From Octopus vulgaris (taxonomy: Eukaryota), in assembly GCA_951406725.2 (NCBI GenBank), contig OX597828.1, positions 69,812,001 through 69,876,000 of the forward strand: a DNA stretch of 64,000 nucleotides, written 5' to 3'. Every line of letters starts with the position of its first letter. The stretch's first letter is position 1. Below, piece by piece: positions 16,120-16,554 of the stretch. Made by a program: the position numbers and the translations under genes. A model generated the notes under the pieces. That model was given only the letters and a program-made list of their open reading frames with translations. It made no database searches and was not told the origin of the DNA.

Positions 16120-16554
16120 GAAGTAATCTTTATCGCTACTTAAACGTGGCTGTTCTGTAGGAACCGACGTTACTGCTATTTTTAACCCCAGGAGGACGCC
16201 TTCTCCAGCTGGTTATTTGATACAACTTGCGTCCGATATATATCGCAAGAAGGCGAGTGAACACCTACCATCTCTTGCCACGAGACCACCAGACCTCACC
16301 GTTTCGACCTCTTTGTGGTCATCCTCGGTGGTGGATGACCTCATGGATAGCTGGAGTGAACTACTACTATCTCTAGCGAGCGATTATCCATCACCGAGGA
16401 TGACCACAAAGAGTCACTCCCCTGCTCACAATAATATCGGGTGCAGGTTGCATCGAATAACCAGCCGAAGGAAGCGTCCTCCTGGGGTTAAAAAATAGCA
16501 GTAATGTCGGTTAGGGCGGAACAGCCATGTTGAAGTAACGATAGACATTACTTC
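16120..16554. repeat. Inverted-repeat element, ~120-bp outer arms, enclosing a hammerhead and an inverted partial copy
   Basis: GAAGTAAT...TTTAACCCCAGGAGGACGC...CCGATAT (16120-16240) is mirrored by ATATCGG...GCGTCCTCCTGGGGTTAAA...ATTACTTC (16435-16554). Confidence 0.85.
16278..16346 (-). ncRNA. Type I hammerhead, U4C core variant with extended bulged stem I
   Basis: CCAUGAG gucau CCACCA-CCGAGGA u-GACC(acaaaga)GGUC-GAAA-C(ggugag)G-UC-UGGUGG u CUCGUGG. Confidence 0.8.

Follow-up and report, generated by a model that had tools for sequence, protein, structure and literature searches.

A hammerhead motif with a C4 core in a probable Penelope-like insertion of Octopus vulgaris

Among the closest described relatives of the locus discussed here are Penelope-like elements (PLEs). 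Insertions of endonuclease-bearing (EN+) PLEs are reported to consist of an inverted, 5'-truncated copy beside a direct one, with a one-sided tail of 30-40 bp and short duplications (PMC8557442, PMC3846280). The hammerheads of PLEs are described as opposite-strand pairs 100-700 bp apart, with an additional nucleotide after position 9 and before position 10.1, and with a helix III that is palindromic (PMC4209133), and are thought to cut as dimers (PMC6765202). The canonical type I build has been tied to tandem retrozymes rather than to the minimal hammerheads of PLEs (PMC7229834), and a preprint derives retrozymes from the pseudo-LTRs (pLTRs) of PLEs (10.64898/2026.07.22.740005).

A C in place of U at core position 4 (U4C, giving CCGA) occurs in the hammerhead of peach latent mosaic viroid, where some activity is reported to be retained (PMC3088659), and in four variants of a citrus viroid-like RNA (PMC9608096). 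A 2026 virome survey used the descriptor CYGANGA for deep-sea viral hammerheads (PMC13481778), and all single mutants of the CUGA turn are reported to be low in activity in a type III hammerhead whose mutants were scanned pairwise (PMC9901934). No animal repeat or retroelement family with a C4 consensus was found in the literature searched; Lunse et al. 2016 and the supplements of PMC4209133 could list such variants.

Anatomy of the insertion at 16120-16590

The window analysed here, a 64-kb stretch of contig OX597828.1, looks like non-coding animal DNA, mostly of 33-47% GC, with microsatellites and dispersed short repeats; no tRNA was found in it. A tandem repeat with a 66-nt period, its units 90-95% alike, fills 1-456, and a 285-bp repeat occurs in opposite orientations at 26350-26634 and 44788-45071 (93% identical). 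Copies of a SINE-like family lie at 8814-8948, 10458-10895, 13978-14625, 15597-15832, 19765-20028, 25563-25769, 54973-55291, 57767-57925 and 63376-63536, the one at 13978-14625 being tandem with a 184-nt period and one copy lying 300 nt left of the hammerhead element. A near-perfect 290-bp foldback at 4701-4989 (90% self-complementary, DNA fold z -26) holds no hammerhead match, and weaker palindromes are seen at 3254-3415 and 3621-3897.

A hammerhead descriptor search of both strands of the 64 kb gave one match, and no strict match arose in 60 shuffled windows. The minus-strand sequence from 16346 to 16278 is a real hammerhead of canonical type I build, with three helices round the core and the open end in stem I, and it has every part that a first-pass annotation of this DNA had listed: the stems, the GUCAU/U bulge, CCGAGGA, the extra U and GUC. 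Read along the minus strand, the distal stem I (16346-16340/16284-16278; 7 bp including one U-G) is separated by the bulge, GUCAU at 16339-35 opposite U at 16285, from a proximal stem I of 6 bp (16334-29/16291-86). The core CCGAGGA occupies 16328-22, and the extra U at 16321 directly follows A9. Then come stem II (16320-17/16309-06; 4 bp, with a loop of 7 nt), the GAAA of the core at 16305-02, stem III and GUC, after which the cut is predicted to fall between 16292 and 16291. Stem III has 2 bp in this copy, or 3 bp and a tetraloop with the letters of the wider family described below. When the core is compared with C3 U4 G5 A6 N7 G8 A9, G12 A13 A14, A15.1-U16.1 and H17, all positions are present except U4, which is C.

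No Rfam model reached its gathering score anywhere in the window. The best ribozyme match was Hammerhead_HH9 (RF02275), which scored 15 bits where the cut-off is 52 (E values 1.3 and 0.17), and the microRNA matches in Rfam reflected the inverted repeat only. Wider motif scans gave no match among the viral contigs searched, one among metagenome contigs (in an unrelated, GC-rich contig without similarity to the element) and seven among genome contigs, all of them 20-30-nt chance matches lacking the GAAA half where about four were expected.

Table 1. Features of the insertion and its borders, in window positions
Feature	Position	Strand	Remarks
Left target-site duplication candidate, 9 nt, AT-rich	16111..16119	+	Equals 16591-16598 apart from one T
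Inverted arm: 5'-truncated 3' end (pLTR-like) without tail, full hammerhead inside	16120..16348	-	Covered by family contigs
Type I hammerhead motif, C4 core	16278..16346	-	Only strict descriptor match; extra U after A9, decayed stem III
Stem III region 15.1-16.1	16293..16302	-	Private changes at 16296, 16297 and 16300 break the family's 10-nt palindrome
Core position 4 = C, in a CpG with G5	16327	-	The other arm has C too, at 16395
Family-type upstream sequence, potential long extension of stem I with 16291-16250(-)	16349..16389	+	Matches the loose-end consensus behind 16336
Second, partial hammerhead: 5' strand of stem I, C4 core, half of stem II	16386..16413	+	Rest lost in the 48-nt deletion
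Direct arm, downstream part	16414..16554	+	From the arm alignment
One-sided tail, 36 nt	16555..16590	+	Missing from the left arm; family depth drops at about 16580
Right target-site duplication candidate, 8 nt	16591..16598	+	Same word as 16111-16119, one T fewer

The motif lies within an insertion of 471 bp with the anatomy of a PLE (Table 1). Inverted arms of some 120 bp had been noted around it; such arms exist, but the repeat extends beyond them, 16120-16336 corresponding along its full length to 16386-16554 apart from 48 nt that are missing on the right, and the insertion reaches 16590. The arms are 84% identical (150 of 179 aligned columns, about 11 of these outside the element) and, in the sense of the ribozyme, are joined by their 5' ends, head to head. 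The partial hammerhead does read CCGAGGA, as first described: it shares 27 of 28 letters with the full copy, C4 included. With C at position 4 in both arms, the earlier view that U4C is older than the duplication holds.

Three marks of PLE insertion are present: the inverted, 5'-truncated head-to-head copy, a one-sided tail of the expected 30-40 bp and a short, imperfect flanking duplication. When 4000 random AT-rich sites were tried with the same 9-mer, 27 gave a match as good within an 11-nt range; random 9-mers gave 15 in 4000. Symmetric terminal inverted repeats, as in a MITE or foldback element, are absent, the right end carrying 36 extra nucleotides of family sequence, and what had been labelled a foldback element is better read as a head-to-head insertion of PLE type. 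The locus has no head-to-tail tandem units of the kind that mark non-LTR retrozymes, and no second copy of the family was found within the 64-kb window.

Coding traces are slight. A search for a reverse transcriptase or GIY-YIG ORF gave no Pfam match in 109 of 150 non-repetitive stop-to-stop frames of at least 70 aa in the window, and neither arm has a clean ORF start. An ATG in 16527-16590 (+), 28 nt before the end of the arm, is in frame with the tail, with stops interrupting in both arms; it may be what is left of an ORF start. The pLTR and tail of Adineta Pen2a, with which this frame may be compared, are described as holding 12 + 10 ORF codons (PMC3846280). The ATG formed at A9-U-G10.1, as in Anolis Poseidon, opens no frame that survives in both arms.

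Set beside the EN+ PLE insertions described in PMC3846280 and PMC8557442, the locus is alike in its head-to-head, 5'-truncated copies of about 200-230 bp, its 36-nt tail, its 8/9-bp duplication, its AT-rich target and the hammerhead within the repeat, and unlike in having no ORF between the arms. The ribozyme resembles the PLE hammerheads of PMC4209133 in being type I, in the extra nucleotide between 9 and 10.1 (seen in the 16278-16346 copy), in G10.1-C11.1, in a palindromic helix III (found in the family majority), in its predicted dimer and in lying as a pair on opposite strands. It departs from their minimal form: a 6-bp helix I, a 4-bp helix II, a bulge and a loop II make up the canonical type I build, and the palindrome has 10 nt. 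These sizes count against a PLE, as do the 1-nt gap in the target-site duplication and the failure of the frames searched to yield a reverse transcriptase or GIY-YIG ORF, which would be the chief evidence of membership. The C4 core is a further difference, the core variant that the PLE account in PMC4209133 names being U3-A8.

The repeat family and core position 4

The stretch, or part of it, is contained in 20 of the 24 genome runs listed. Contigs (DNA only) were aligned at a likeness of at least 80% in four runs, one per organism; this threshold favours copies resembling that at 16120-16590, and contig depth is not the same as copy number. Related contigs number 736, 953, 599 and 978 per run, which makes the element a repeat of many copies in each of the four organisms. 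Contigs joining the flank to the element were recovered in organisms C (X8 record 25, 22 differences in 335 nt) and D (X12 record 16), so the insertion is probably old, shared and older than those splits.

In each run 37-50 family contigs extend past 16120 into tail sequence. Their loose-end consensus agrees with 16555-16584 at 23 of the first 30 letters (a count by eye), so the tail belongs to the family and the insertion keeps it at one end only. At 16336, 22-34 contigs per run depart from the left arm and go over into the sequence kept in the right arm at 16349-16389. This gives most copies a UAU/U bulge and an extended stem I in place of GUCAU/U with a 7-bp distal stem, and the latter, earlier taken as the architecture of the motif, is therefore not the majority form of the family. 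Two contigs carry a 3' strand able to pair with the distal stem I strand of the 16278-16346 copy, so the GUCAU/U form may be a minor subfamily. The upstream sequence 16349-16389 and the downstream sequence 16291-16250(-) are predicted to form a duplex of -44.3 kcal/mol, a value that none of 1000 shuffles equalled.

Coverage is uneven along the element. At 16144-16212 and its mirror, 16466-16534, contig depth is three to six times that of the ribozyme core; either many copies end short of the ribozyme or the region is common to several subfamilies. In other contigs, antisense pieces with different cut points are joined to the family's upstream sequence, 16187 and 16201 to 16349, and 16163 to 16393. 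Such variable joints would be expected if every insertion makes the inversion anew, 16349 serving as the 5' end, or if the element is itself a long rod that carries the ribozyme at its tip.

Stem III of the octopus copy is untypical. Letters other than its own make up 63-95% of the depth at 16296, 16297 and 16300 (21-49 contigs per run and place), and the majority letters turn stem III into a perfect 10-nt palindrome. The letters were counted place by place and are unphased; the shares imply that no less than one third to two thirds of the depth has all three together. The family stem III being a perfect palindrome, the non-palindromic loop of the 16278-16346 copy is private decay, and the 2-bp stem III that had been noted with this loop is no feature of the design.

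At position 4 the family appears to agree with the octopus copy. Among the best 40 of 299 rows of differences there is no U at 16327 or 16395 and no row from anywhere between 16301 and 16378. In these 40 the smallest best-run share is 52% (18 computed, 22 judged higher by eye). By estimate, some 60-66% of the depth over the core extends across 16328-16336 and so takes in position 4, while about a third ends before stem I, where subfamilies with U4 could sit. A U4 majority would be expected to show, as its listed neighbours at 16296-16300 do, depth units in the thousands, contigs in the dozens and a share of nearly 90%. Decay at CpG sites runs from C to T, not from T to C. As C4 and G5 form a CpG, an origin of C4 by decay of U4 is disfavoured. 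Judged from the best 40 of 299 rows rather than from a count, C4 is likely to be the majority letter in the subfamilies that align. The first-pass proposal that C4 is a natural trait of the family is likewise favoured, both arms having C and U4 being absent from those 40 rows.

Predicted folds and activity

Folding was predicted with a secondary-structure model whose energies ignore tertiary contacts and Mg2+. For the 16278-16346 copy as a monomer, the hammerhead fold lies 9.4 kcal/mol above the minimum, with a stem I probability of 0.0 in four contexts, and in a transcript spanning both arms a long hairpin is predicted to hide the core. This copy had been held to keep the contact architecture of stem I bulge and loop II; the model predicts that it does not adopt the hammerhead fold.

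The family letters behave differently. Their stem III self-duplex reaches -16.4 kcal/mol, against -2.1 for the 16278-16346 copy, and in cofolded dimers the probability of an intermolecular stem III is 0.95-0.96 with C4 and 0.96-0.97 with U4, against 0.00 for that copy. With the family letters the hammerhead is thus the favoured fold as a dimer and not as a monomer, by prediction. Since a double hammerhead is predicted for the family letters and none for the 16278-16346 copy, this copy is probably an inactive ribozyme, and the family RNA is likely, on these folds, to be cut as a dimer.

The letter at position 4 shifts the predicted balance. With the family letters and C4, the segment A-C3-C4-G5 is predicted to pair with the 3' half of the palindrome; compared with U4, this stabilises the monomer's off state by 2.2 kcal/mol and lowers the gain from dimerising from 8.6 kcal/mol to 4.2. 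Selection for a lock could account for this off state, as could drift or quasi-palindrome copying, of which it would be a by-product.

Origin of the locus and meaning of C4

The evidence is best explained by a single old insertion, at 16120-16590, of two head-to-head stubs. These are likely to be the hammerhead-bearing 3' end (pLTR) of a PLE, with a ribozyme that is likely dead. A PLE reverse transcriptase and endonuclease acting in trans would have copied the end of an RNA twice at one AT-rich site, and that RNA would already have carried C4. In the source, the 10-nt palindrome would have let two copies pair as a double hammerhead, which would have cut after GUC, probably slowly; in a lone copy, pairing of A-C3-C4-G5 with the 3' half of the palindrome is predicted to give the off state. 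After insertion the stub would have gained the three changes in stem III and lost 48 nt from the right arm.

The strongest alternative is somewhat unlikely. It has C4 family-wide and the ribozyme vestigial, the element having spread without need of cleavage while the core drifted. It fits the anatomy of the insertion just as well as the preferred reading and differs from it on function only. PMC11167929 describes normal insertion in vitro by ribozyme-dead mutants of Anolis Poseidon and an absence of RNA-seq reads ending at the cut site, and of U4C it is stated that it 'considerably decreases activity in vitro' (PMC3088659). The weak single mutants of the CUGA turn in the type III hammerhead (PMC9901934) likewise speak against function. 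Loss of function is harder to reconcile with the absence of any majority change at 16301-16378 among the best 40 of 299 rows, with the palindrome, bulge and loop II kept in the family and with a viroid bearing U4C that is reported to stay infectious (PMC3088659; PMC9608096). The opposite view of function is less probable still: the family's hammerhead would be a working one with a CCGA consensus and C4 a built-in lock, so that it cuts only with the partner strand of a second copy. As A-C3-C4-G5 is the first half of the palindrome, a lone RNA would fold into the off state.

It is rather improbable that the family is a non-LTR retrozyme, with tandem units of 200-400 nt and rod-like circular RNAs, and the locus a rearranged pair of monomers. 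The canonical type I build and a unit length of about 290 nt would suit it, and the -44.3 kcal/mol rod formed by the upstream and downstream sequences recalls the highly self-paired retrozyme RNAs of PMC7229834. The 6-bp helix I, 4-bp helix II and bulged distal stem I, together with a CAAA-A-type loop II and rod-like flanks, resemble the metazoan type I retrozyme hammerheads described in the same source, with HH9 (RF02275) as the nearest Rfam model. Unlike those, the locus is not tandem, its core has C4 and its Rfam score is far below the cut-off. No head-to-tail tandem is seen here and no tail-to-start joint among the best 15 of 128 listed, whereas the one-sided tail, the duplication and the head-to-head inversion are marks of PLEs. 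If retrozymes do derive from PLE pLTRs, as the preprint cited above has it, the retrozyme and PLE readings overlap.

Equally doubtful is a family master with the canonical CUGA, in which C4 would come from one source copy or from this locus alone, as damage in a dead element. The alignment at a likeness of at least 80% does favour copies like that at 16120-16590, position 4 was judged from the best 40 of 299 rows, and stem III of the 16278-16346 copy has decayed too. Against this, a U4 majority should rank with the listed rows at 16296-16300, CpG decay runs the opposite way and both arms, 84% alike, keep C. Finally, a foldback or MITE DNA transposon whose terminal inverted repeats enclose a hammerhead by chance is very improbable: it would account for the long inverted arms (fold z -18) and the flanking duplication, but the ends are asymmetric, with a tail on one side only, the arms include the ribozyme itself, and the variable left cuts (16187, 16201) joined to 16349 suit a new inversion at each insertion, or a rod element.

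On the preferred PLE reading, the locus is ordinary debris of a known type of insertion. U4C is already known in nature from viroids, which share the identical core substitution and are reported to keep some activity with it (PMC3088659; PMC9608096); what would be new is the likely family-wide CCGA core combined with a 10-nt dimer palindrome. In the viroid reports U4C is a minority variant of replicating RNAs, whereas in this animal genomic family C4 is likely the majority letter. If C4 is the consensus, a rare and slowing viroid variant is carried by a successful genomic element. Searches with a CUGANGA descriptor, such as that described in PMC8557442, would then miss such families and may wrongly call PLEs 'ribozyme-free'. 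The contrast between C4 and U4, and between monomer and dimer, within this family offers a simple test of whether hammerhead cleavage matters for the transposition of PLEs.
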